The notes under the pieces are model-generated. The model was not told the DNA's origin, ran no database searches, and saw nothing but the letters and a program-made list of their open reading frames with translations. Both the position numbers and the translations under genes were made by a program. Positions 7,887 through 63,734 of a stretch of 64,000 nt of DNA are shown here, piece by piece. How positions within the stretch are numbered: position 1 is the first letter of the stretch; each line of letters starts with the position of its first letter. Source of the DNA: Candidatus Methanophagaceae archaeon (lineage in GTDB: Archaea > Halobacteriota > Syntropharchaeia > Alkanophagales > Methanospirareceae); NCBI GenBank assembly GCA_003194425.1, contig PQXB01000001.1, forward strand, positions 263,522 to 327,521. The letters are read 5' to 3'.

Positions 7887-10800
7887 ATGGGAGAAAAGGG
7901 AAGGAAGAGAGAGGGGGGAAAGTGGAAGAAGAGACGACTGATTGGAGTAGCGGCGGTGGGGGCGATATTAGTGACGACTTTTGCTTCGCAGGCTGTGTGC
8001 GCATCGGTGCCGTTGTTTAATGAGGCAATACTTAGAGGGTATGTTTTCGATACGCAGGGAAATCCAATACAAAGGGCATTAATTGAATGGCGAGATAGCG
8101 AGACTATGGAACTATTTGAACTTACAACCACAACCTACACAGGATATTATTCCACGCCACACTTGTTCAACGACGCGGGCGCCGTAAGATCCTTGATAAC
8201 CGCCGCAAAGACAGACTTCTCTACTAACTCAACAATAATAACGACCGAGCCTGCTTTTCCGCCTACATTTTACGAACTGAATTTTACATTGCTTGAAATA
8301 GCGGAAACAGGCAGCATAAACATAAACGAGATAATGTACAATCCAAGCACGGAGCAAGGAAGCGACACCGTGCTGGAGTGGATTGAACTGCGCAACGACG
8401 ACACAGCAGCAGTGAACCTAAACGGCTGGACGATTGCGACACCCGAAGTAGGAAAAATAACAGAAGAAATAATTCTGCAGCCGGGAGGTTACGCAGTGCT
8501 TGCGAGGAACAAGGACGCGTTTGAGGCCTACTACGGTGCCGGTGGCGAGTTGTCGTGCTCGGTGGTAGAAGTGGAAATGAGACTTGGAAATGCAGAGGAC
8601 ACGGTAGTCTTGAAAGACGGTGCAGGAACAGAAATCGACCGGGTGTCCTACAAGGACGACTGGGGTGCGGACGGTAACGGGAAAACACTGGAACTAATTG
8701 GAGCAGGCGGGGGCTGGCGAGAGAGCGTAGCAGACGACGGAACGCCTTGTGCAGAGAACAGCGTAGTTTTTATGAAGCCCGACCTGACGGTTACCGTTTC
8801 AGACGGCTCGCTTAACTGCGGCTTCCTCTTCGGGAACGAGAGCAACGAGGTCTGCGTAACTGTCGAGAACATCGGCACTGACAGGACAGACGCGTTCAAC
8901 CTCTCCTTCGATATGAACGGCTTCAGCACAGAAGAGCGAGTGGCTGGCGGGTTAGTGGCTGGCGGGAATGCAACAACGGTCTGCGTCGCCGACCCGACGC
9001 TGCGAAGTGCGGGCGATTCGGTGACCGTTCGCGTCGTCGCAGACTGCAACGGCGAAATTACTGAGTCGAACGAGACGAACAACGCAGCCAGCCTCACAAC
9101 AACAGTCGTGAACAACGGCTACAAAGGAAAACGATACACCGGCGGCGAGGACATCGCCAGTTGGAAGAAATTTGAACTCAACGGCGACCTGCTCTACTCT
9201 GTCGGCGACAGTTTCTATCTGAGTGCTTACACCTACAAGCACTGGACGGAGTACGCTGCAAACTGGACTGTGAGCGACCTGCAAGTTCCTGATACTGAAA
9301 CTGCGACCGTTAGAGAGGCGAGGTTGTACGTGCCTTACACCTGGGACAAGGCAGGTGTGATGCCCGACGAGGTGAGCCTGACCTTCAACGGCGTGACTCA
9401 AACGTTGGACGCACACTACACGGATGAGAAAATGCACGCTACCAGCTACCCCTACGGAATGCTGGTATACAATGTAACCGAAGATTTGGATACAAGCGCA
9501 AGCGGCAACACCGCAGTACTCACTAACTCTCACCTCGGTGGCGGAAATGTGTCAATTCGCGGAATGCTTCTCACGGTGATTTACGCAGACGAGAGCGAGC
9601 CACTGCGTGAGATATTTGTTAACGAGGAGTTTGACCTGCTCTACGGCGGGGCGTCAAAATGCACGACGCCCGAGGAGGCGACCGCTTACGCTCCTTTCGG
9701 AACTGCTGACACTGAAGATGTTCTTTCTGCCACGCTGGTAACAGTCGCTCCTGGTGCAGGACCGAGTGAGGGGGAGCTGACCTTTAACGGGCAGAAATGG
9801 ACGGACGTGTGGAGTTTTGCAGGCGCTACGCAAATAGGAATAGACAAGCGAGAAGTAACTTCGTTCTTGCAGGCGGCCGAGAACGAAGCGGGGTTCCAAA
9901 GCAGCGCCGACTACTTTGAACCGAGCAACGCAATTCTCGTTGTAGAACACATTGAGCGGGTAAACCTAAACATAAACGAGATAATGTACAATCCAAGCAA
10001 GGAGCAAGGAAGCGACACCGTGCTGGAGTGGCTTGAACTGCGCAACGACGACACAGCAGCAGTGAACCTAAACGGCTGGACGATTGCGACACCCGAAGTA
10101 GGAAAAATAACAGAAGAAATAATTCTGCAGCCTGGAGGTTACGCAGTGCTTGCGAGGAACAAGGACGCGTTTGAAAATTACTACGGTGCCGGTGGCGAGT
10201 TGTCGTGCTCGGTGGTAGAAGTGGAAATGAGACTTGGAAATGCAGAGGACACGGTAGTCTTGAAAGACGGTGCAGGAACAGAGATCGACCGGGTGTCCTA
10301 CAAGGACGACTGGGGTGCGGACGGTAACGGGAAAACACTGGAATGGAATGCGACAGGCTGGTTTGAGAGCGAAGTAGAGGGCGGAACGCCTTGTGCAGAG
10401 AACAGCGTAGTTTTTATGAAGCCCGACCTGACGGTTACCGTTTCAGACGGCTCGCTTAACTGCGGCTTCCTCTTCGGGAACGAGAGCAACGAGGTCTGCG
10501 TAACTGTCGAGAACATCGGCACTGACAGGACAGACGCGTTCAACCTCTCCTTCGATATGAACGGCTTCAGCACAGAAGAGCGAGTGGCTGGCGGGTTAGT
10601 GGCTGGCGGGAATGCAACAACGGTCTGCGTCGCCGACCCGACGCTGCGAAGTGCGGGCGATTCGGTGACCGTTCGCGTCGTCGCAGACTGCAACGGCGAA
10701 ATTACTGAGTCGAACGAGACGAACAACGCAGCCAGCCTCACAACAACAGTCGTGAACAACGGCTACAAAGGAAAACGATACACCGGCGGCGAGGACATCG

Positions 10801-13436
10801 CCAGTTGGAAGAAGTTTGAACTCAAAGGCAACTTGCTCTACTCGGTCGGCGACAGTTTTTACCTGAGTTCCTCCACGCAGAAGCACTGGGCGACCTACAC
10901 TGCCAACTGGACTACAGGAGACCTACCAGTTCCCGAGACTGCGACTGTTAGAGAGGCGAGGTTGTACGTGCCTTACACCTGGGACAAGGCAGGTGTGATG
11001 CCCGACGAGGTGAGCCTGACCTTCAACGGCGTTGCTCAAACACTGGATGCACACTACACAGACAGGAAAGGCTACGGCTCCTACGACTACCCTTACGGAG
11101 CGCTGGCTTACAATGTAACCTCGGGTTTTGACCTTGACGTAAGGAACACCGCAGTGCTAACGAACACACACCCCGGCGGTGGAAATGTGTCAATTCGCGG
11201 AATGCTTCTCACGGTGATTTACGCAGACGAGAGCGAGCCACTGCGGGAGATATTTGTTAACGAGGAGTTTGACCTGCTCTACGGCGGGGCGTCAAAATGC
11301 ACGACGCCCGAGGAGGCGACCGCTTACGCTCCTTTCGGAACTGCTAACACTGAAGATGTTTTCTCTGCCACGCTGATAACAGTCGCTCCTGGTGCAGGAC
11401 CGAGTGAGGGGGAGCTGACCTTCAACGGGCAGAAATGGACGGACGTGTGGAGTTTTGCAGGCGCTACGCAAATAGGAATAGATAAGCGAGAAGTAACTGC
11501 GTTCTTGCAGGCGGCCGAGAACGAAGCGGGGTTCCAAAGCAGCGCCGACTACTTTGAACCGAGCAACGCATTCCTCGTTGTAGAACACAAGAGGCCAGAC
11601 CTTGTCGTCAGAGGGATTAAAATAAACCCCAACGGCACTCGCGGCGAAGAGATTGTTAGGGTTTATGTAAATGAGAGCAACAACCTCACTGCAGTCGTGC
11701 AGAACAACGGAAATGCCGACGCAGGAGCGTTTGAGGTCTGCTTCGAGGTGGGTTCAGGCGTTGAGGTCGGCTGCGTAAACGTGGCTGGACTGCCTGCTGG
11801 GGCTAACGCAACGGTCAGCACCTTTTGGACGCCGTGTTGCGAAAACTACTCGGTTGAGCCCGGTTTCCCGGCACGCTCGCTTCCCACAACTGTAAATGTA
11901 ACTGCGGACTGCACTGAAAAAATACCCGAGTCAGACGAGGCGAACAACCTGCTCTCGAAGTTTATTCCCGCTGTTCAGCAGTACGCGGGCTACGATGTTT
12001 TAGGCGGGGTCGTTAACAACGGCTACAAGAGCAAGAACTTCGACTGCAACGCCACTGAAGAGCCGCTGACACTCTTCGAGCACGAGGAGGAGTTGCTCGG
12101 CGGCGGTCTCGCGTTAAATGTAAGCGGTGCGAAAATCAGTTCCTTCGATCCCGGCGAGACCAGCACAAGAACCCACCACATTGAAATTCCTGAAGGTGCA
12201 ACCGTGAAAACCGCGAGGCTCTACGTCTACTGGTACGACAAATGGGGTAACTACAAGCAGTACCCAACTGGGTGCTTGGCGGACCTCAGCGTGAATTTTG
12301 GTGGCACCGAGTTCGCACCCGCAAAGAAATACAACGACCAGAAGGGCTTCGGCTACTACCACAGCCCGAAAGGAACTTACACCTACAACGTGACCTCAAA
12401 GGTGCGAGAAGCCGGGTCTGGCGACTACACCGCAGTCGTCAAGAACACCGACCCCAAGAACAGCACGACCCTACTCGGCGAAATGCTACTCGTCGTCTAC
12501 GACGACCCAGCGAAGACAAACCTCACGCAAATTTGGGTGCTTGAGGGCAACGACTACTTAATGTCCGCAGACGAGACGCACAACAGCTACAACTACGGCG
12601 TCTCGCCAGAAGAGGCGACTGCAACCGTGAAATTACCCGGAAACCTCTCGACAGCGGCAGCGAATCTCAGTTCCGTCTGCTCTGCAACGCTAATTTCGGT
12701 CGTCGCGCAGGGAATGTCGCCTGGAGCAAACCTACTCTTCAACGGCGAAGTCGTTAAGACAGACGCTTGGAACACGGAGACCGAAGCCTACCCAAACAGC
12801 AAAATTAATTTGGAGTCGTTAGATGTGAAGCCCTACCTGACCTTAACCGCTTCAGGCAACAGAGGAAACAGCGTTGGCTTCCAAGACACTGGCACCGACG
12901 GTCTGCAGGCGAGCAACGCGATTCTTGTGGTGGAATATTCTGAGCAAGAGCCACTGCACCCCGCTGTTTCAATTTCCACCGACAAAACAGACTACACCCC
13001 TGGCGAGACAATGCAAATTACACTGAACTTGTCAAATCCAACGGGGACTGACCAAACGGTGTGGTTTGAGTGGTACTTTGGAATACCGGCTTACAGCTAC
13101 TGGCTGCCTTTTGTAGAGCCTTTGCCTTTAAATTTGCCCGCGGGTTGCGAGTACTCCTTCCCCTTTTCAATTTTGGTAGGCAACTGGGGCGAGACGGGAT
13201 TTGACGCAGTCTGGCTCGTGAACCTGTCAGACCCGGTAACGCACAAAATTATAAGTTCTGACACTGCCGAGTGGAGCTACGCCCCTGTTCCTCCTGCTAC
13301 TGCTGTTGCTACCGCTGCAGTTAGCAGCGAGCAAACGCGAAGCGTAGAGAACTTTGATGAGGAAATGTTAGGTTCAGGCAGAGAAATAGAAAAGAAGTTA
13401 AAGGCAAAATTAGAAAGTGAAACAGAAAAAAGATGA
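7887..13436 (+). CDS. Giant secreted protein (1849 aa): 2x [lamin-tail domain - CARDB-like - NNGY module], a third diverged module, and the shared C-terminal domain
   Basis: Signal peptide; LTD-like INEIMYNP...EWIELRN...NLNGWTI; CARDB-like ...ITESNETNN; C-terminal SISTDKTDYTPGETMQI...AEWSYA domain. Confidence 0.85.
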   Translation: MGEKGRKREGGKWKKRRLIGVAAVGAILVTTFASQAVCASVPLFNEAILRGYVFDTQGNPIQRALIEWRDSETMELFELTTTTYTGYYSTPHLFNDAGAVRSLITAAKTDFSTNSTIITTEPAFPPTFYELNFTLLEIAETGSININEIMYNPSTEQGSDTVLEWIELRNDDTAAVNLNGWTIATPEVGKITEEIILQPGGYAVLARNKDAFEAYYGAGGELSCSVVEVEMRLGNAEDTVVLKDGAGTEIDRVSYKDDWGADGNGKTLELIGAGGGWRESVADDGTPCAENSVVFMKPDLTVTVSDGSLNCGFLFGNESNEVCVTVENIGTDRTDAFNLSFDMNGFSTEERVAGGLVAGGNATTVCVADPTLRSAGDSVTVRVVADCNGEITESNETNNAASLTTTVVNNGYKGKRYTGGEDIASWKKFELNGDLLYSVGDSFYLSAYTYKHWTEYAANWTVSDLQVPDTETATVREARLYVPYTWDKAGVMPDEVSLTFNGVTQTLDAHYTDEKMHATSYPYGMLVYNVTEDLDTSASGNTAVLTNSHLGGGNVSIRGMLLTVIYADESEPLREIFVNEEFDLLYGGASKCTTPEEATAYAPFGTADTEDVLSATLVTVAPGAGPSEGELTFNGQKWTDVWSFAGATQIGIDKREVTSFLQAAENEAGFQSSADYFEPSNAILVVEHIERVNLNINEIMYNPSKEQGSDTVLEWLELRNDDTAAVNLNGWTIATPEVGKITEEIILQPGGYAVLARNKDAFENYYGAGGELSCSVVEVEMRLGNAEDTVVLKDGAGTEIDRVSYKDDWGADGNGKTLEWNATGWFESEVEGGTPCAENSVVFMKPDLTVTVSDGSLNCGFLFGNESNEVCVTVENIGTDRTDAFNLSFDMNGFSTEERVAGGLVAGGNATTVCVADPTLRSAGDSVTVRVVADCNGEITESNETNNAASLTTTVVNNGYKGKRYTGGEDIASWKKFELKGNLLYSVGDSFYLSSSTQKHWATYTANWTTGDLPVPETATVREARLYVPYTWDKAGVMPDEVSLTFNGVAQTLDAHYTDRKGYGSYDYPYGALAYNVTSGFDLDVRNTAVLTNTHPGGGNVSIRGMLLTVIYADESEPLREIFVNEEFDLLYGGASKCTTPEEATAYAPFGTANTEDVFSATLITVAPGAGPSEGELTFNGQKWTDVWSFAGATQIGIDKREVTAFLQAAENEAGFQSSADYFEPSNAFLVVEHKRPDLVVRGIKINPNGTRGEEIVRVYVNESNNLTAVVQNNGNADAGAFEVCFEVGSGVEVGCVNVAGLPAGANATVSTFWTPCCENYSVEPGFPARSLPTTVNVTADCTEKIPESDEANNLLSKFIPAVQQYAGYDVLGGVVNNGYKSKNFDCNATEEPLTLFEHEEELLGGGLALNVSGAKISSFDPGETSTRTHHIEIPEGATVKTARLYVYWYDKWGNYKQYPTGCLADLSVNFGGTEFAPAKKYNDQKGFGYYHSPKGTYTYNVTSKVREAGSGDYTAVVKNTDPKNSTTLLGEMLLVVYDDPAKTNLTQIWVLEGNDYLMSADETHNSYNYGVSPEEATATVKLPGNLSTAAANLSSVCSATLISVVAQGMSPGANLLFNGEVVKTDAWNTETEAYPNSKINLESLDVKPYLTLTASGNRGNSVGFQDTGTDGLQASNAILVVEYSEQEPLHPAVSISTDKTDYTPGETMQITLNLSNPTGTDQTVWFEWYFGIPAYSYWLPFVEPLPLNLPAGCEYSFPFSILVGNWGETGFDAVWLVNLSDPVTHKIISSDTAEWSYAPVPPATAVATAAVSSEQTRSVENFDEEMLGSGREIEKKLKAKLESETEKR
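8317..9952 (+). repeat. Intragenic tandem duplication, copy 1 (~1.64 kb)
   Basis: By eye about 95-97% identical to 9967..11592; mirrored by duplicated antisense shadow ORFs in the ORF track. Confidence 0.9.
9967..11592 (+). repeat. Intragenic tandem duplication, copy 2 (~1.63 kb)
   Basis: Direct repeat of 8317..9952 with a few substitutions and short indel blocks. Confidence 0.9.
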
Positions 13437-24753: not shown

Positions 24754-26214
24754 ATGCCGTCTAATTCTAACCAAACGTTTGCGAGAGTGGTTGTAGTTGC
24801 TGCGGTCTGCGTCTTTAGCACGCAATTTGGCGTTACTGTGGTCGCGCCACTGCTCGGCGGGTGGGTGGCGGCGTCAGAAACACCGTTCCTCGTGGCAGCG
24901 TTGATTTTCTCGGCTTTTACACTCGTTAGCGCACCGCTTGGAGTTCCGGGCGGCGTTCTTTCAGACAGGCTCGGGCGGAAACCGCTGGTCGTGGCAGGGC
25001 TGCTGCTTTACGCTGCGGCGTCGGTTCTCTTTCCGTTTTCGGACGACCCTTACGACTGGATTTTTGTGCGGGCGCTGCAGGGAGCGGGTGCGGGCTTGTT
25101 CTTCCCTGCGGTTAGTGCTCTGCTTGCGGAGGTTACGAGCCAGGACCACGAGGAACGAGGAGAGGAACGAGGAGGAGAGCAGGGAGAGGAGCGGGGGCGT
25201 GCGTTCAGCGTGTACAACATCGGGCTGGGCGTTGGTTTAGCAGCGGGACCGATTTCAGGCGGGCTTTTATTTGAGGCGTTCGGGATTTTCGTGCCGTTTC
25301 TGTTCTGCGTTGGGTTTGCGGTTCTGAGTGCGGTCTTGGTGGCGGTCTTGGTGCAGGAGCCGAGAGAGAGGTCAGAGCGGAGGAGGGGCGGCGGGTTGGC
25401 GTTGGGGTTGGCGTTAGGCGAGCGGGAGAGGCGGGCGTTGGGGACTGCTTGCGTGGTGATTTTTTTTGGAATCGGAGTTGCAGCGATTATGGAATCGCTG
25501 TTCTCTCCGTTTGCTACAAACGAACTGAGGCTCTCTACAGGCGTCGTCGGAGCGGTTCTTTCCGCGATGCTCGGTGTGTTTGCAACGCTCCAACTCGGCT
25601 TCAGCCGACTGATGCAGAAGGTTGGGGAGGTGGGGATTTCTGCTTTTGGGCTTTTTCTGTGTGCCGTTGGTCTGCTTATGCTTTACTTCGTAACCAGCGT
25701 TCCCAGCGTTCTGGGGCTGCTCTTGGTGAGTGCTGTTCTTGGTGCGGGTCTGGGTGCGGTCTCGCTCGGAACGCTGACGCTGGCGTCAGACGCGGTGGGA
25801 GCAGGCGGCGGAGTTCGCGGAGTAGGGGAGGAGAGAGGAAAAGGGGAGGAGAGAGGAGTAGGAGAGGAGAAAGGAGAAAGGGAGGAGAGAGGAAAAAGGG
25901 AGGAAAGAGGAGAAAGGGAGGAAAGAGGAGCAGGAGAGGAGAGAGGAGAAAGGGAGGAGAGAGGAGTAGGAGGAGGAAAAGTGATGGGAATTTACTACAC
26001 TGCGTTTTACGCAGGTCTTGGTGGCGTTCCGCTTGTCTGCGGGGTTTTTTCAGATATTTTAGGTGCGAGGCGGCTGTTCTTGGGCTACGCGGTGCTGCTC
26101 TTTGTCTTAGCGTTTGCAGTGTGGCAGGGCAGAGTGTTACGGAGGGGCAAGACACCGGCACCGTTTAACACAGAGGTTGCAAATAAAACACAAGAAGAAA
26201 AATTATGTTTGTAG
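24754..26214 (+). CDS. MFS transporter
   Basis: Multiple TM segments; MFS loop motif LSDRLGRKP; long Gly/Glu/Arg repeat insert. Confidence 0.7.
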   Translation: MPSNSNQTFARVVVVAAVCVFSTQFGVTVVAPLLGGWVAASETPFLVAALIFSAFTLVSAPLGVPGGVLSDRLGRKPLVVAGLLLYAAASVLFPFSDDPYDWIFVRALQGAGAGLFFPAVSALLAEVTSQDHEERGEERGGEQGEERGRAFSVYNIGLGVGLAAGPISGGLLFEAFGIFVPFLFCVGFAVLSAVLVAVLVQEPRERSERRRGGGLALGLALGERERRALGTACVVIFFGIGVAAIMESLFSPFATNELRLSTGVVGAVLSAMLGVFATLQLGFSRLMQKVGEVGISAFGLFLCAVGLLMLYFVTSVPSVLGLLLVSAVLGAGLGAVSLGTLTLASDAVGAGGGVRGVGEERGKGEERGVGEEKGEREERGKREERGEREERGAGEERGEREERGVGGGKVMGIYYTAFYAGLGGVPLVCGVFSDILGARRLFLGYAVLLFVLAFAVWQGRVLRRGKTPAPFNTEVANKTQEEKLCL

Positions 26215-27218
26215 GTGTAGACCACGGGACCAGTGGAATCCGTTTTGCGGGGCTAAAGAAGGAAAGAAGAAAAAGAGGAGTAGGAGAAGCGGAGGTCTGT
26301 GAGTTGTCGCGGGAGAGGGCGGCGGAGCTGAGCGGCGAGGAGATTTTAAGCGAGGTGGAGGGGGAGCTGAAGATTGAAAGAGACGGGATAAATTTGCTTG
26401 CACTGACCTACTCGATGGGAGACGGCTTCTCCAAGATAAAAAGCGTTGAGAAGGTGCCGAACAGGGGTGTGAGGAGCGGAGAAGGAGCAGGTGCAAGAGT
26501 CGGCGGCGGGACAAAGGTCTTTGACGCCCTGAAGGACGCAGGCGTTCCTGCGATTTTGATTCCGGGCATTCACGCTGGGAGCGAGAAGTTGGACCGCAGA
26601 ATGAAGTTCTTCTCGCACGGGGCGAGTCCCGAGAAAGTCGGCGTTGCGTACCACCTTTACAAGAAAGGCTTTGAGAACTTCATTTTTTCAGACATTAGTT
26701 CTAACACCGTTACGGTGGCGGTCGCGAGCGGGGTGGTAGTGGGGGCGGTGGACGCTTGCTTGGGCGCTCCTGGGTTGTTTCAGGGTCCGCTTGACCTTCA
26801 GCTGTTGCGGGAGATTGAGAGTGGGCGGGTAAGCGCGAACGAAGCGTTCTCAAACGCCGGCGTCCTGCGTAAGAGGTGGGTGGGCGGAGTAAGGGGCGGA
26901 GTAAGGGGCGGAGTAAGGAAAGAGGGAGAGGAGGAGTTGGTGCTCGACGCTCTCGCTTTGTTTGCGGCGATGGAAATCTCGGCGATGCAGGTTCTTATGC
27001 GAGATTGCGGCGTGGGTGTAGAAGCGTCTCGTGTTTTCCTTACAGGCTCGGTGGGTGAAAAGGAGGAGGTGAAGCGGAGGATCGAGAGGCTCTTGGACAG
27101 CGGCGACGGCGAGACCGAGACTTTAACGAGGTGGAGTGCGGCAGTAGGGTGTGCGGAGATTGCAAAGGATGTTTTTTACGGCGAGAGGGAGATATTGGGG
27201 ATCGAAGTGGAGTTGTGA
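26205..27218 (+). CDS. Hypothetical ASKHA-type ATPase-like protein (BadF/BadG/BcrA/BcrD-like N-terminus)
   Basis: N-terminal VGVDHGTSGIRFA phosphate-1-like motif; function not assignable. Confidence 0.45.
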   Translation: MFVGVDHGTSGIRFAGLKKERRKRGVGEAEVCELSRERAAELSGEEILSEVEGELKIERDGINLLALTYSMGDGFSKIKSVEKVPNRGVRSGEGAGARVGGGTKVFDALKDAGVPAILIPGIHAGSEKLDRRMKFFSHGASPEKVGVAYHLYKKGFENFIFSDISSNTVTVAVASGVVVGAVDACLGAPGLFQGPLDLQLLREIESGRVSANEAFSNAGVLRKRWVGGVRGGVRGGVRKEGEEELVLDALALFAAMEISAMQVLMRDCGVGVEASRVFLTGSVGEKEEVKRRIERLLDSGDGETETLTRWSAAVGCAEIAKDVFYGEREILGIEVEL

Positions 27219-27255
27219 GTGTTCCTAAGATGGTTATTGTGGGGGAGAAGCCGTT

Positions 27256-27690
27256 GTGAAAAAAGAGGACGCAAATAAAGCTTTATGGGACTATTATAAA
27301 ATATTGTCAGAACAATGCATACATGTAGGAACACAATTACATCGGAGTCTTTCTTTGAGTATCATGTGTATGATGTTATTTTTAACATTTACAGGGCTTT
27401 TGATAACTCAAAAGGTAAATTTTTCTTTTAATTTAGTTACTATAGGAATAGCTATTATCGACTTTGTAATTTTTTTGTTTTTCATTTCATCTGTTGGTTA
27501 TTATCTTCACCTACGAATTCATCTGCACAATATTTTTGGTACTGTTATGAAGATGGAAGAATTACAACGCGATATCCTTTTCGATAAAGTAAGTGAAGAT
27601 GAATTAGAAATGAGATTTGAAGGGGTTTATCCTTTTTTAAATGCCTCTAGATATAAAACAAAATGGAAAATTTTGTTTAGGAGATGGTAA
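27256..27690 (+). CDS. Hypothetical small membrane protein (AT-rich island)
   Basis: GTG start, hydrophobic segments, base composition markedly lower in GC than flanks. Confidence 0.4.
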   Translation: MKKEDANKALWDYYKILSEQCIHVGTQLHRSLSLSIMCMMLFLTFTGLLITQKVNFSFNLVTIGIAIIDFVIFLFFISSVGYYLHLRIHLHNIFGTVMKMEELQRDILFDKVSEDELEMRFEGVYPFLNASRYKTKWKILFRRW

Positions 27691-27933
27691 ATGGCGTAAT
27701 GATACAAAAATTAGTAAATATTCTTTTATTTAAAAGAAAGGAAATATTAAAAAGGTGGTTGAAAATGAAAGGCGCTAAAAAAGTTCATTTCCCTGTTCTC
27801 GTGGAGAGGGATGAAAATGGTTTTTTGTGGTTGAATGTCCTTTTCTTCAAGGGTGCTACATACAGGGCAAAACGCTGGACCAGGCGTTGAAAAACAGAAC
27901 ATGCATGAAGAGAAGAAAAAGAGCAAAAGAATA

Positions 27934-29370
27934 ATGGAACTAAACCGATTGTACTACGGCGACAACTTAACGATTCTCCGAAGATACTTTCCTGACGAGT
28001 CGGTAGACCTGATTTATTTAGACCCGCCGTTCAACTCCAACGCCTCTTACAACATCCTTTTTAAAGAGCCGGGGACAGGCGGCGAGCAGTCAGCCGCGCA
28101 AATTACCGCCTTCGACGACACTTGGCACTGGACAAGCGAGAGCGAGCAGACGTTCCAAGAGATTGTTAAGACCGCTCCTGCGACGGTTGTTAATTTAATG
28201 ACCGCGTTGAAGGACGCTATTCACAGAAACGACCTGCTGGCTTACCTCACGATGATGTGCATTCGGCTTCTTGAGTTGAAGCGAGTTTTGAAGCAGACTG
28301 GCTCTCTTTATTTGCACTGCGACCCGACCGCGAGTCATTACTTGAAGATCCTTCTAGACGCTATCTTTGGAAAGGAGAATTTCAGGAATGAAATAATTTG
28401 GAGTTATCGAAGATGGCCAGCAAAGCAGGAAAATTTTCAGAGGATGCACGACACGATTTTGCGTTACTCAAAAACAGAGAAAGTCATTTGGAACCAACTT
28501 TTTGAACCACTCGCAAAATCGACTTTAAAAGCGGATGGCGGAAATAAAATTCTTAATGTTTTTGATCCAGATACAGGAAAACGGATTCGTGGTAAAAAAA
28601 CGGGCGAAAAATCTCTGGGCGCACCGTTGCGAGATGTGTGGGAAATTTCAGTAATCGCACCAACTGCCAAAGAGCGTGTTGGCTACCGAACGCAGAAGCC
28701 CGAAGCCCTCCTTGAACGCATCATAAAAGCGTCCTCAAACGAGGGCGACGTGGTCTTAGACCCGTTCTGCGGCTGCGGGACTGCAGTAGCAGTTGCCGAG
28801 AGACTCGGTCGCCGCTGGATTGGAATTGACATCACGCATCTCGCTATCAATTTAATAAAAGGGAGATTAAAAGACAATTTCCCAGAGATTGCGTTTTCGG
28901 TCGTCGGCGAGCCAGTAGATTTAGCAGGTGCCGAAGCGTTAGCAAGACAGAACCGCTACCAATTTCAGTGGTGGGCACTCTCGCTAGTCGACGCCAGACC
29001 GTTCGGCGATAAAAAGAAAGGTGCTGACACTGGAATCGACGGCTTCTACTACTTCAACGACGGCGGGACGACAAAGAAGGCGGTCGTCTCTGTTAAGAGC
29101 GGGAAAGTAGGCGTAAGCCAAATCCGAGAGCTAAACGCGGTCGTAGAACGCGAAAAGGCGGAAATGGGCTTCTTCTTGACTCTAAAAACTCCAACAGCAG
29201 CAATGAAAGAAGCAGCCACTGGTGAAGGCTTTTATTTAGATTCCTTCGGGAATAAATATCCGAAGCTGCAACTCTTTACAATTGAAGAACTTCTTAACAA
29301 TAAAAGTCCAGACACGCCGCAAAAAGTCGGTCTCTTTGAATCTTACCGAGCAAAAAAATCAAAAGGATAA
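27934..29370 (+). CDS. DNA methyltransferase (N4/N6 beta-class) with C-terminal Mrr-like PD-(D/E)xK-fold domain
   Basis: Motif IV DPPFNS, motif I DPFCGCGTAV; C-terminal GADTGIDG...VSVKSGK...LFTIEELL; ORF is open from 27835, ATG 27934 (MELNRLYYGDN) preferred. Confidence 0.75.
   Translation: MELNRLYYGDNLTILRRYFPDESVDLIYLDPPFNSNASYNILFKEPGTGGEQSAAQITAFDDTWHWTSESEQTFQEIVKTAPATVVNLMTALKDAIHRNDLLAYLTMMCIRLLELKRVLKQTGSLYLHCDPTASHYLKILLDAIFGKENFRNEIIWSYRRWPAKQENFQRMHDTILRYSKTEKVIWNQLFEPLAKSTLKADGGNKILNVFDPDTGKRIRGKKTGEKSLGAPLRDVWEISVIAPTAKERVGYRTQKPEALLERIIKASSNEGDVVLDPFCGCGTAVAVAERLGRRWIGIDITHLAINLIKGRLKDNFPEIAFSVVGEPVDLAGAEALARQNRYQFQWWALSLVDARPFGDKKKGADTGIDGFYYFNDGGTTKKAVVSVKSGKVGVSQIRELNAVVEREKAEMGFFLTLKTPTAAMKEAATGEGFYLDSFGNKYPKLQLFTIEELLNNKSPDTPQKVGLFESYRAKKSKG
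28951..29355 (+). repeat. Direct repeat copy A (~0.4 kb) flanking pyrF
   Basis: About 90% identical to 30121..30525 with several perfectly identical blocks of 43-64 nt. Confidence 0.85.
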
Positions 29371-29398
29371 AGGCAGAATAAGTTAATGAGGAAAAAGG

Positions 29399-30106
29399 AT
29401 GTTTGAAAATCTGCCGGGGATAATTCCCTCATTGGATGTTGAGATTGGAGAGGCGAGAAGGGTAGTAGAAGAGATCAAGGATTTGAGGCGGGAGATTTGC
29501 GGATTGAAAATAGGCTCGCTCCTTGCTTGGAAATATGGGTTGCAGAGGGTGGTGGAGGAGATGAAAAAAACATCTGATTTCAAATTCCCGATAATTTTTG
29601 ACGCACAGAAGGCAGGAACAGACATTCCAGAAATGACACGGAAACAGGTGAAAGTCGTTGCTGACGCTGGCGTAGACGCGTTTATCGCGGCTCCGCAAGG
29701 CGCTGGCTCGGCGACGCTTGCTGCTTTTGTGGACGCCTGCCTTGAACACGAAATAATTCCAATCGTGGTCGTAGAGATGACGCACCAGGATTTTGACGCT
29801 TTTCTGTCGGGCGACGCTTCGGAGAAGATTTTGGAAGACGCGTTGGAGCGGGGTGTTGAGGACTTTGTGGCTCCTGCCAACAAGCCCGAGCGTTTGAAGT
29901 TTTATAAAAATTTTGCTGAAGAGAAGAAGAAAGGGATAAAAATATTCTCGCCTGGGGTGGGTCCTCAGGGCGGCGGTCCCGATTCGGCTGTTGCGGCGGG
30001 TGCGGATTTTGTGATCGTTGGCAGAGCGATTTACGAGGCGGAAAATCCGCGAAGAGAAGTGATTCGGATTTACGAGAAGATTAAGAAGGTTAAGAAGGCG
30101 GTGTAA
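29399..30106 (+). CDS. pyrF: Orotidine 5'-phosphate decarboxylase
   Basis: Size and motifs (PSLDVE, DAQKAGTDIP, GVGPQGG) consistent with archaeal-type OMP decarboxylase. Confidence 0.65.
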   Translation: MFENLPGIIPSLDVEIGEARRVVEEIKDLRREICGLKIGSLLAWKYGLQRVVEEMKKTSDFKFPIIFDAQKAGTDIPEMTRKQVKVVADAGVDAFIAAPQGAGSATLAAFVDACLEHEIIPIVVVEMTHQDFDAFLSGDASEKILEDALERGVEDFVAPANKPERLKFYKNFAEEKKKGIKIFSPGVGPQGGGPDSAVAAGADFVIVGRAIYEAENPRREVIRIYEKIKKVKKAV

Positions 30107-30109
30107 AAA

Positions 30110-30565
30110 ATGGAACTAAACAGACAGAACCGCTACCAATTTCAGTGGTGGGCACTCTCGCTAGTCGACGCACGACCGTTCGGCGATAAAAAGAAAGGTG
30201 CTGACACTGGAATCGACGGCTATTTCTTCTTTAACGACGCTGGCGAGACAAAGAAGGCAGTGGTGCAGGTTAAGAGCGGTAAAGTCGGAGTCAGCCAAAT
30301 CCGCGAACTAATCCAAGTCGTAGCGAGAGAGAAAGCGAAAATGGGCTTCTTCTTGACTCTAAAAACTCCAACAGCAGCAATGACCGAAGCAGCCACAGGC
30401 GAGGGATTTTATTCTGATTCCTTCGGTAATAAATATCCAAAGCTCCAAATCTTTACGATTGAAGAACTTCTTAACAATAAAAGTCCAGACACGCCGCAAA
30501 AAGTCGGTCTCTTTGAATCTTTCCGAAATACCAAAAGGAGAAAGAATAAAAGAAACAAAAAATGA
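30110..30565 (+). CDS. Standalone Mrr-like restriction-endonuclease-domain protein (paralog of the methyltransferase C-terminus)
   Basis: Begins with the same first four codons as the methyltransferase (MELN) then the Mrr-like domain; carries QVK where the fused copy has SVK. Confidence 0.55.
   Translation: MELNRQNRYQFQWWALSLVDARPFGDKKKGADTGIDGYFFFNDAGETKKAVVQVKSGKVGVSQIRELIQVVAREKAKMGFFLTLKTPTAAMTEAATGEGFYSDSFGNKYPKLQIFTIEELLNNKSPDTPQKVGLFESFRNTKRRKNKRNKK
30121..30525 (+). repeat. Direct repeat copy B (~0.4 kb) flanking pyrF
   Basis: See copy A. Confidence 0.85.
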
Positions 30566-31719
30566 AAAAGCCGATATTTGACGATGTTGGGAGTTACCCA
30601 CTGCCCGAGGGAACGACGAAGGAGTGGCTGAAAGAAGCCTTCTCCAGTGCTGCTACCAATTCCCAACTCTACGAAATAATAAGAGAAGCGATGTGGCAGA
30701 AGATAAACGCGGGCGTTGAAGTCCCGAACTACCCGCAGTTTCAAAATATGATTTCGCAGTTCAGCGAGCCGATTTTGGACGACAGCCGCACAGAAGCACC
30801 GCTGCTCGTAAAAGAAGAAGAGGCGAGGCTGGTCGAGCTGGACGCTTTAGAGGGGCTGGCTGCGGAGTACAGGGAAGAGCGAGGGGGAGGAAGAGGAAGC
30901 GGAGAGGGAGGAAGAGGGAGCGGAGAGGGAGGAAGAGGGAGCGGAGAGGGAGGTGGGGAAGGGGAGAAATTGAAAATCAGAATTTGCGTTACCGGCCCTG
31001 TAGAGTTGTACTACAGCCTCTTTCCACCGCCGGTTTACACAGACGTCCTCTCAAACATTGCGAAATCAGTGGGCAGGTTCGTAAAGCACGCGGTGGAAGG
31101 AGCGAGGAAAGGAGCGAAGAAGAGGAATTACGAGGTGAGTTGCGTCTCAATTGACGAGCCGAGCATTGGGTTAGACCCTCGCATTGAGGTAAAGGAAGAC
31201 GAGGAGAGCGTAGTCACCGCACTCGAACTCGCCACCGAGTACGCGTCTCGAACCGCGGGCGTTGACACGCAAATTCACCTGCACTCGCCGATTTTTTACG
31301 AGACCGTTTGTCAGGTGGAGGGGATAAAAGTGATTGGGCTGGAGTCTGCGGCTAACCCGTCCCTCCTTGCTCTAATTGACAAAAAAGAACTCGAGCAGCA
31401 CGACAAGTTCCTCCGCATCGGCGTCGCGAGAACTGACATCTTCAGAATGGCTGCCGAGTACGACGAGAGGCACAACACGAACTCCTTCGGGAAAAGCGGG
31501 AAGGAGAGAAGGATTTTGGAGGCAGTGGTTAACGAGTACAACAGCCCTGCCCTCGTAAAAAAGCGGTTGGAGAAAGCGTCTACGATTTTCGGCGAGCGGG
31601 TGCTGTACGCTGGTCCTGACTGCGGACTTGGGGCGTTTCCCAGTCAGGAGTTGGCGTCTTTGGTCTTGAAGAACACTTCTCTTGGGCTGCGGGGGCTGCG
31701 GGAGCGGGATTTTCGGTGA
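30562..31719 (+). CDS. MetE-like (cobalamin-independent methionine synthase family) protein
   Basis: C-terminal AGPDCGL motif and overall resemblance to the MetE catalytic domain; contains (GGRGSGE)3 insert. Confidence 0.45.
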   Translation: MKKPIFDDVGSYPLPEGTTKEWLKEAFSSAATNSQLYEIIREAMWQKINAGVEVPNYPQFQNMISQFSEPILDDSRTEAPLLVKEEEARLVELDALEGLAAEYREERGGGRGSGEGGRGSGEGGRGSGEGGGEGEKLKIRICVTGPVELYYSLFPPPVYTDVLSNIAKSVGRFVKHAVEGARKGAKKRNYEVSCVSIDEPSIGLDPRIEVKEDEESVVTALELATEYASRTAGVDTQIHLHSPIFYETVCQVEGIKVIGLESAANPSLLALIDKKELEQHDKFLRIGVARTDIFRMAAEYDERHNTNSFGKSGKERRILEAVVNEYNSPALVKKRLEKASTIFGERVLYAGPDCGLGAFPSQELASLVLKNTSLGLRGLRERDFR

Positions 31720-61219: not shown

Positions 61220-61292
61220 GGGGCTGTAAGGTAGCCAGGCATCCTCCCAGCTCGGGGAGCTGGTAACCGGAGTTCAAATCTCCGCAGCCCCA
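61220..61292 (+). tRNA. tRNA-Pro (anticodon GGG)
   Basis: Acceptor GGGGCTG/CAGCCCC, anticodon arm CCAGC-UCGGGGA-GCTGG, T arm CGGAG-TTCAAAT-CTCCG; position 33 is C (unusual). Confidence 0.7.
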
Positions 61293-63662: not shown

Positions 63663-63734
63663 AGCCCTGGGCGGGACTCGAACCCGCGCTCTCCACCTTA
63701 CCAAGGTGGCGCATTTCCACTATGCTACCAAGGC
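63663..63734 (-). tRNA. tRNA-Thr (anticodon GGU)
   Basis: Acceptor GCCTTGG/CCAGGGC, D arm GCAT/ATGC, anticodon arm CCACC-UUGGUAA-GGTGG, T arm GCGGG-TTCGAGT-CCCGC. Confidence 0.8.

Follow-up and report, generated by a model that had tools for sequence, protein, structure and literature searches.

Two recombining methyltransferase-Mrr paralogs around pyrF in a strain-variable locus of ANME-1 archaea, one of them probably reduced to its C-terminal domain

Recombination-driven shuffling of specificity in restriction-modification (R-M) genes is exemplified by the hsdS shufflons of Type I systems and by the allelic recognition domains of Type III mod genes. Mrr-type nuclease domains are represented by Mrr of E. 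coli, by the Type ISP enzymes LlaGI and LlaBIII, and by MspJI and AspBHI. Mrr, LlaGI, and the enzymes of the MspJI family have D-QxK as their active configuration (PMC2790908, PMC12707154). In LlaGI, both Asp residues of motif II (D-x-G-I-D) and the Lys of motif III are essential, and mutants of the Glu (E38A) and of the Gln retain partial activity (PMC2790908). The locus described here lies in a stretch of 64,000 nucleotides (nt; hereafter the window) on contig PQXB01000001.1 of an uncultured methane-oxidizing archaeon of the ANME-1 group (Methanophagales). It comprises a full-length gene for a DNA methyltransferase with a C-terminal Mrr-type domain (copy A), the pyrimidine gene pyrF, and a gene of 151 amino acids (aa) that encodes little besides an Mrr-type domain (truncated copy B). 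From the comparison with sister strains (contigs are designated by L numbers), we estimate with a probability of roughly 75% that two solitary methyltransferase-Mrr paralogs flank pyrF in a locus that varies by strain and that copy B of the window has been reduced to its C-terminal domain.

Both Mrr-type domains of the window share motif II with E. coli Mrr, LlaGI/LlaBIII, and MspJI/AspBHI (D-T-G-I-D in both copies), and truncated B, like about half of the family of related fusion proteins, also has the motif III Q-x-K of these enzymes. In contrast to them, motif I is F-Q, and motif III of copy A is S-V-K. Unlike Mrr-type nucleases, the proteins contain neither an N-terminal reader of modified DNA (Mrr_N or SRA) nor a helicase; a beta-class methyltransferase is attached instead. 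Mrr-like Type IV enzymes combine an N-terminal domain binding modified DNA with a catalytic domain, and the 151-aa protein is a catalytic-type domain alone; in copy A, the methyltransferase takes the position of the binding domain. The small subunit of R.BspD6I and N.BspD6I form a heterodimeric Type IIS enzyme with a fixed functional pairing, whereas the small gene of the present locus is a minority deletion allele. What the locus has in common with the hsdS shufflons and the Type III mod alleles is that unrelated recognition segments within near-identical frameworks are reassorted between tandem paralogs and strains. The locus differs from those systems in having no invertase, no inverted repeats, and no sign of programmed switching; its variation was observed between strains and not inside a clone.

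The 151-aa gene is copy B minus codons 5-337 and, thus, a deletion derivative of a second full-length fusion paralog, because sister contigs hold a methyltransferase-bearing copy B and because the window and one of these contigs (L005) share the deletion junction. Over the flanks of the locus, identity to the Methanophagales contigs L001 and L002 is 97.6-97.8%. On L002, one full-length methyltransferase-Mrr gene (P0004, annotated as "Methanophagales archaeon DNA methyltransferase") is located between the genes for methanogenesis marker 12 and the metE-like protein; the short gene is collinear with its 3′ end at 97.6% identity, onward into the metE-like flank. L004 and L006 have a complete methyltransferase-Mrr gene of 495 aa (copy B) behind pyrF and, after it, the metE-like gene. 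On seven further contigs (L003 and L007-L012), pyrF is followed by the methyltransferase N-terminus of copy B (MDLNTLYYGDN...) until the contig ends. A copy B that includes the methyltransferase N-terminus is, thus, visible on 9 of the 11 informative sister contigs (two complete, seven cut by contig ends). The truncated B protein is 97-98% identical to the C-terminal domain of copy B from L004 and L006. The junction, ATGGAACTAAAC-AGA-CAGAACCGC, occurs only in the window and in L005 and joins codon 4/5 to the Arg preceding QNRYQFQWW, which is in the linker before the Mrr domain. The in-frame loss of ∼1 kb covers the catalytic motifs, the recognition segment, and the motifs for binding S-adenosylmethionine. 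In L005, a second in-frame deletion of 96 nt (32 codons) removed core strands of the domain and left 119 aa (P0241). An earlier reading of the window, made from the sequence alone (the sequence-only reading), had pointed out that both genes start with the codons for MELN; ATGGAACTAAAC is indeed present at both 27934 and 30110.

Gene conversion between the two copies, which the same reading had suspected, is supported by mosaic haplotypes across strains, as seen when all A and B copies were compared segment by segment and variable sites were tabulated across the sister contigs. The 5′ 461 nt of copy A of the window are 97.6% identical to the B copies of other strains; with copy A of L003 and of L004, the identity is only 85-86%. 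The recognition segment of the methyltransferase exists in three types, designated alpha, beta, and gamma, with 22-28% protein identity among them. Alpha is found in the window and in copy A of L003, L004, and L010 as well as in L001 (99-100% identity of the window segment to those of the four contigs), beta in every copy B with a visible recognition region as well as in L002 and in copy A of L007 and L008, and gamma in copy A of L006 and L012. The frameworks around these segments are otherwise near-identical (87-97%). The N-terminal core is 97% identical between an alpha (window A) and a beta (L004 B) allele, and the C-terminal part of the methyltransferase 80-88% identical across the three types. 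The Mrr region falls into two haplotype families with recombinants: the A position of L005 and of L008 is occupied by a B-like Mrr domain, and the truncated copy B of L005 contains the A-like SVK.

The two Mrr-type domains of the window had also been described as direct repeats of ∼0.4 kb, about 90% identical, with perfectly matching blocks of 43-64 nt. The repeats and the blocks (exact runs of 64, 50, 48, and 45 nt) are present as described, and the identity measured over the ungapped 405 nt is 87.9% (49 differences). By codon position, the differences are distributed 7/12/30, and the encoded domains differ at 14 of 135 residues. These exact runs were evaluated with 20,000 permutations in which the number of differences per codon position was preserved: four runs of at least 43 nt were obtained in 0 of 20,000 permutations, and the probability of a maximal run of at least 64 nt was 0.005. 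Continued exchange between the repeats would account for both the mosaic alleles and the exact blocks of 45-64 nt, the latter being shared haplotype tracts.

Two sister contigs lack pyrF at this site. On L001 (within 11482-13404), a gene of the AliA_AliB family follows copy A in place of pyrF, and on L002 (GCA_026133975.1), a single chimeric methyltransferase with an A-type start and a B-type body is encoded (10001-11488). L002 may be a loop-out recombinant or a collapsed assembly, and the same may apply to L001. Comparing genomes of close ANME-1 relatives, Zhou et al (2026; PMC13385816) reported structural variants in genes for adenine-specific DNA methyltransferases and in hicAB genes. The locus fits this published picture of structural-variation hotspots with adenine methyltransferases and hicAB (PMC13385816); no mention of the locus, of pyrF, or of Mrr was found in the main text of that paper.

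We propose that the locus would normally hold two solitary methyltransferases, A and B, as direct repeats of ∼1.45 kb on either side of pyrF. A and B would usually carry different recognition segments and, therefore, probably methylate different motifs. In the lineage of the window, copy B would have lost ∼1 kb in frame, leaving the start region, the overlap with the metE-like gene, and, between them, the Mrr-type domain. Between the two repeats, the exchange of sequence through homologous recombination or gene conversion would continue. The 151-aa gene is, thus, most likely a remnant. Its frame may be kept open through translational coupling to the metE-like gene, as suggested by a conserved ATGA overlap: the ATG of the metE-like gene and the stop codon of truncated B overlap by 4 nt, and in relatives, the stop codon of full-length B is overlapped in the same way (gene tables of L002, L004, L005, and L006). 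The seemingly designed R-M pair would then reflect a hypervariable locus of an uncultured methane-oxidizing archaeon, caught at one moment of gene decay and recombination. With two methylase paralogs that recombine and three recognition segments that are interchangeable, sister strains would differ in their methylomes and, hence, in their barriers to gene flow and viruses. The position of an essential pyrimidine gene between 1.45-kb direct repeats may interest specialists, as may the very large family of such fusions in cells, phages, and plasmids, whose nuclease-like domain has a two-state site (Gln or Ser).

That copy A encodes a beta-class methyltransferase, as the sequence-only reading had it, follows from its match to Pfam N6_N4_Mtase (PF01555; E 2.7e-48, 165.3 bits, cutoff 26.7) and from motif IV preceding motif I: DPPF at residues 30-33 is followed by a variable segment (154-248) and then by DPFCGCGT (motif I; 276-283). 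The 151-aa gene has no match to PF01555. The AlphaFold2 model of copy A (mean predicted local distance difference test, pLDDT, 87.7; predicted template modeling score, pTM, 0.85) has RsrI, EcoP15I Mod, CcrM, M.BceJIV, and MboIIA as its best Foldseek matches. The target base is probably the N6 position of adenine, judging from DPPF and from the best partial matches in NCBIfam, all of which are below cutoff. PADLOC returned only generic models of Type II/III methyltransferases plus one weak match to PDC-S02. Copy A unites a nuclease-type domain, a methyltransferase, and a recognition segment in one polypeptide, an architecture as in single-chain enzymes of the Type IIC/IIG kind, cleavage being putative.

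Profile searches confirmed that the C-terminal domain is Mrr-like: Mrr_cat (PF04471) scores above its cutoff of 21 in copy A (34.3 bits) and in the 151-aa gene (40.4 bits), and so does NA-iREase1 (PF22722; 41.4 and 43.6 bits, respectively; cutoff 27). The domain has the alpha-beta-beta-beta-alpha-beta core fold of solved Mrr-type domains, and the AlphaFold2 model of the 151-aa protein has a pLDDT of 83. With this protein, a sequence search of the PDB yielded nothing at E ≤ 1 and an exact look-up no record; NCBIfam contains no family for the Mrr-type domain or for the fusion. Of the top 120 homologues, 119 have D365, 119 have D369, all 120 have K388, and 118 have E407; motif I is F-Q rather than F-E in 117 of them as well as in both copies of the window. 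From these residues, the Mrr-type domain could be an active nuclease. The reported difference in motif III (SVK in copy A, QVK in the 151-aa gene) was found as well, and it reflects a two-state position in the family: of 122 sequences, 65 have Gln and 57 Ser at this position, no other residue occurs, and the Lys is invariant. On a neighbor-joining tree of these 122 sequences, ∼26 switches between Gln and Ser are needed. Because Gln is encoded by CAR and Ser by TCN (in the window, CAG at 30266-30268 and TCT at 29089-29091), each switch takes two nucleotide changes. Near-identical A-type haplotypes differ at motif III by a cluster of 4 nt, namely GTC TCT in the window versus GTT CAA in copy A of L004, L009, and L012.

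Copy A is typical of its fusion family, which is large and annotated but functionally unstudied. More than 8,000 proteins share its full architecture, and family members align with 40-92% identity over 95-100% of the length, with the same domain order and motifs. Using the family alignment, 80 loci were retrieved from other genomes, covering many bacterial phyla and Bathyarchaeia. The full fusion is encoded in every one of these with enough sequence, and neither a conserved neighbor nor a stand-alone Mrr-type domain was found among the 80; the largest cluster of neighbors comprises ATPases of ATP-binding cassette transporters (8 of 80 loci). Complete fusions, annotated simply as DNA methyltransferase, are also present in Streptomyces phages (Hippo gp48), Marinitoga phage MPV1 (MPV1_55), and Mycobacterium phage Dori, and on rhizobial plasmids (e.g., WP_044552088 on pMLa of Mesorhizobium japonicum). 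Truncated B differs from this family in that the whole methyltransferase is missing, and the tandem arrangement of A, pyrF, and B was seen only in this ANME-1 population. We found no biochemical study of the fusion family or of its Mrr-like domain in the literature. In four bacterial loci (L024, L069, L041, and L079), a second methyltransferase copy, without Mrr domain or interrupted, adjoins the fusion gene.

Several observations weigh against the view of the 151-aa gene as a mere remnant of copy B. The comparison contigs are mostly short-read metagenome assemblies, which break or possibly collapse at the repeats. The first 12 nt of the truncated gene are A-type (ATGGAACTAAAC, with the spacer TAAAAA) both in the window (30107-30124) and in L005 (1335-1352), whereas all nine full-length B copies start with ATGGATTTAAAC and have a spacer that is one A shorter. 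In detail, the truncated gene therefore did not arise from any sampled B allele by simple internal deletion, and the A-type start points to 5′ conversion or a template switch instead. The truncated open reading frame (ORF) is intact and has kept all Mrr residues essential in LlaGI (both Asp and the Lys) plus the canonical Gln. Its ratio of nonsynonymous to synonymous substitution rates (dN/dS) relative to full-length B orthologues is 0.10-0.24, that of the two full-length copies 0.13, with only 11-22 differences to count; because the values are not clearly higher than between full-length copies, relaxed constraint on truncated B is not demonstrated, and relaxed selection is undetectable at this number of differences. 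The A alleles that accompany truncated B differ between the window and L005; truncated B has, therefore, persisted through recombination.

The latter three observations, together with the presence of the truncated gene in two independent assemblies and its motifs D-T-G-I-D and QVK, which correspond to the active D-QxK configuration of Mrr, LlaGI, and the MspJI family, are also what speaks for the R-M-like pair proposed by the sequence-only reading. There, the 151-aa protein would be the restriction part and the fusion the modification part, both using the same Mrr-type domain for recognition and cleavage, and free and fused domains might pair for double-strand cuts, in the manner of the small subunit of R.BspD6I and the large nickase subunit. 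We consider such a pair improbable. The truncated form is a minority allele next to the methyltransferase-bearing copies B of the sister contigs, and the copy in L005 has decayed further, with 32 more codons of the fold gone. A recognition module is missing from the free domain. What varies between alleles in the manner of a recognition domain is a segment of the methyltransferase (Table 1) and not of the Mrr domain, so that shared recognition finds no support. A two-gene Type II R-M system would have a nuclease gene with recognition of its own, conserved beside the methyltransferase in relatives, which is not the arrangement observed here. Outside this population, the combination of fusion and stand-alone domain occurs in 0 of the 80 family loci, and phages and plasmids contain the fusion as a solitary gene. 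Because the second fusion gene is still full-length in most sister strains, the two genes of the window are a recombining, strain-variable pair of paralogs rather than a matched R-M pair, and the 151-aa protein would not be a dedicated restriction subunit.

Also unlikely, if slightly less so, is that the fusions are single-chain R-M enzymes and that the truncation represents an enzyme disarmed after selection to lose the beta specificity. The near-invariance of the essential Mrr motif residues in the top 120 homologues, the solitary occurrence of the gene without partner nuclease, and the compactness of the full-length model (pTM 0.85) are consistent with this notion. It is difficult to reconcile with Gln in place of the motif I Glu in 117 of the 120, with Ser in motif III of about half of the family, and with the best Pfam match being a family named as inactive nuclease. 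Moreover, lytic and temperate phages carry the gene, and orphan methylases with a protective role are common there; no biochemical report was found, as said above. A combination of these ideas appears more doubtful still: the fusions would form a self-contained R-M or "methylate-or-cut" class in which the Gln/Ser position sets nuclease activity, the paralogs around pyrF would be a recombination-based cassette for specificity shuffling, and the free 151-aa domain would act in trans as partner or inhibitor of the nuclease domain of the remaining enzyme. Such a cassette would be stabilized by the presence of an essential gene, which loop-out between the repeats would remove. An assembly artifact, with the short gene arising from collapse of the two ∼1.45-kb repeats, is very unlikely. 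Population assemblies do break or collapse at these repeats, as illustrated by many pyrF contigs of 2.2-2.6 kb that end in methyltransferase fragments and by L002 without pyrF. However, the window shares the identical junction with L005, an independently assembled contig of 18 kb from a different sample, and no long homology that could mislead an assembler exists at this point. Our preferred explanation is, thus, still that of two paralogs around pyrF, one of which was truncated in the lineage of the window.

The features of the locus are compiled in Table 1. The boundaries that the sequence-only reading had given for copy A, pyrF, and the 151-aa gene (27934-29370, 29399-30106, and 30110-30565) are all correct.

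Table 1. Features of the methyltransferase-pyrF locus, in window coordinates.
Feature	Position	Strand	Basis or remark
Strain-variable AT-rich segment between the methanogenesis-marker-12 gene and copy A	27212..27920	.	GC down to 28%
Gene for 144-aa AT-rich membrane protein	27256..27690	+	29% GC
Frameshifted remnant of a hicB-like antitoxin gene	27765..27934	+	Stop overlaps start of copy A (TAATG)
Copy A, full-length beta-class methyltransferase with C-terminal Mrr-type domain, motif III SVK	27934..29370	+	Pfam
Target-recognition segment of copy A, type alpha	28394..28677	+	Strain comparison
Direct repeat copy 1 (Mrr-type domain of copy A)	28945..29349	+	Repeat alignment
pyrF (orotidine-5′-phosphate decarboxylase), between both paralogs	29399..30106	+	Pfam OMPdecase, E 7.6e-25
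Truncated copy B, start codon region and Mrr-type domain only, D-T-G-I-D and QVK	30110..30565	+	Pfam, relatives
Direct repeat copy 2	30122..30526	+	Repeat alignment
metE-like gene (PRK06052-type methionine synthase)	30562..31719	+	NCBIfam NF004712, 403 bits

The GC content of copy A, pyrF, and the short gene is 44-50%, that of the flanking genes 55-57%, and that of the whole window 52.5%. A pyrF product identical to that of the window is encoded on 17 contigs, and methyltransferase sequence is present on one or both sides of the identical pyrF in 10 of the 10 places shown. Because more distant pyrF homologues (62-66% identity) are situated in unrelated gene contexts, an ancestral linkage of pyrF to the methylase was ruled out. 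Scanning the genome collection with pyrF revealed no relatives.

An AT-rich insertion bracketing pyrF had been proposed as well. A strongly AT-rich, strain-variable piece does exist, but it is confined to the 0.7 kb upstream of copy A. This segment is replaced by ∼66 nt in L001, L002, L003, and L007, and it is present in two contigs from the Joint Genome Institute (L099 and L100) at 98-99% identity. The 144-aa membrane protein encoded there has no match in Pfam, NCBIfam, or PADLOC; 22 homologues of ∼145 aa (54-98% identity) were found, from Methanophagales-type metagenomes, and on other contigs (L096-L098), members of this protein family also adjoin SNase and YcaO genes. With one more T in the T6 run at 27821-27826, a hicB-like ORF of 56 aa is restored, whose product matches HicB_lk_antitox with E 3e-5 and 24.5 bits, below the cutoff of 27. 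The T6 run is identical in L099 and L100, and the frameshift is therefore not a sequencing error. No hicA was recognized beside this remnant by Pfam and profile matches.

Housekeeping genes near the locus contain in-frame, purine-rich tandem repeats, namely the metE-like gene (30873-30967, 21-nt unit), a gene for a transporter of the major facilitator superfamily (25819-25981, units of 18/36/54 nt), and the gene for methanogenesis marker 12 (26882-26918, 12-nt unit). The copy number of the metE-like array differs by strain, with lengths of 94 (L004 and L006), 115 (window), 136 (L005), and 157 nt (L002), corresponding to 2-5 units. Unrelated to the locus, the window also contains genes for tRNA-Pro (GGG; 61220-61292) and tRNA-Thr (GGT; 63663-63734).

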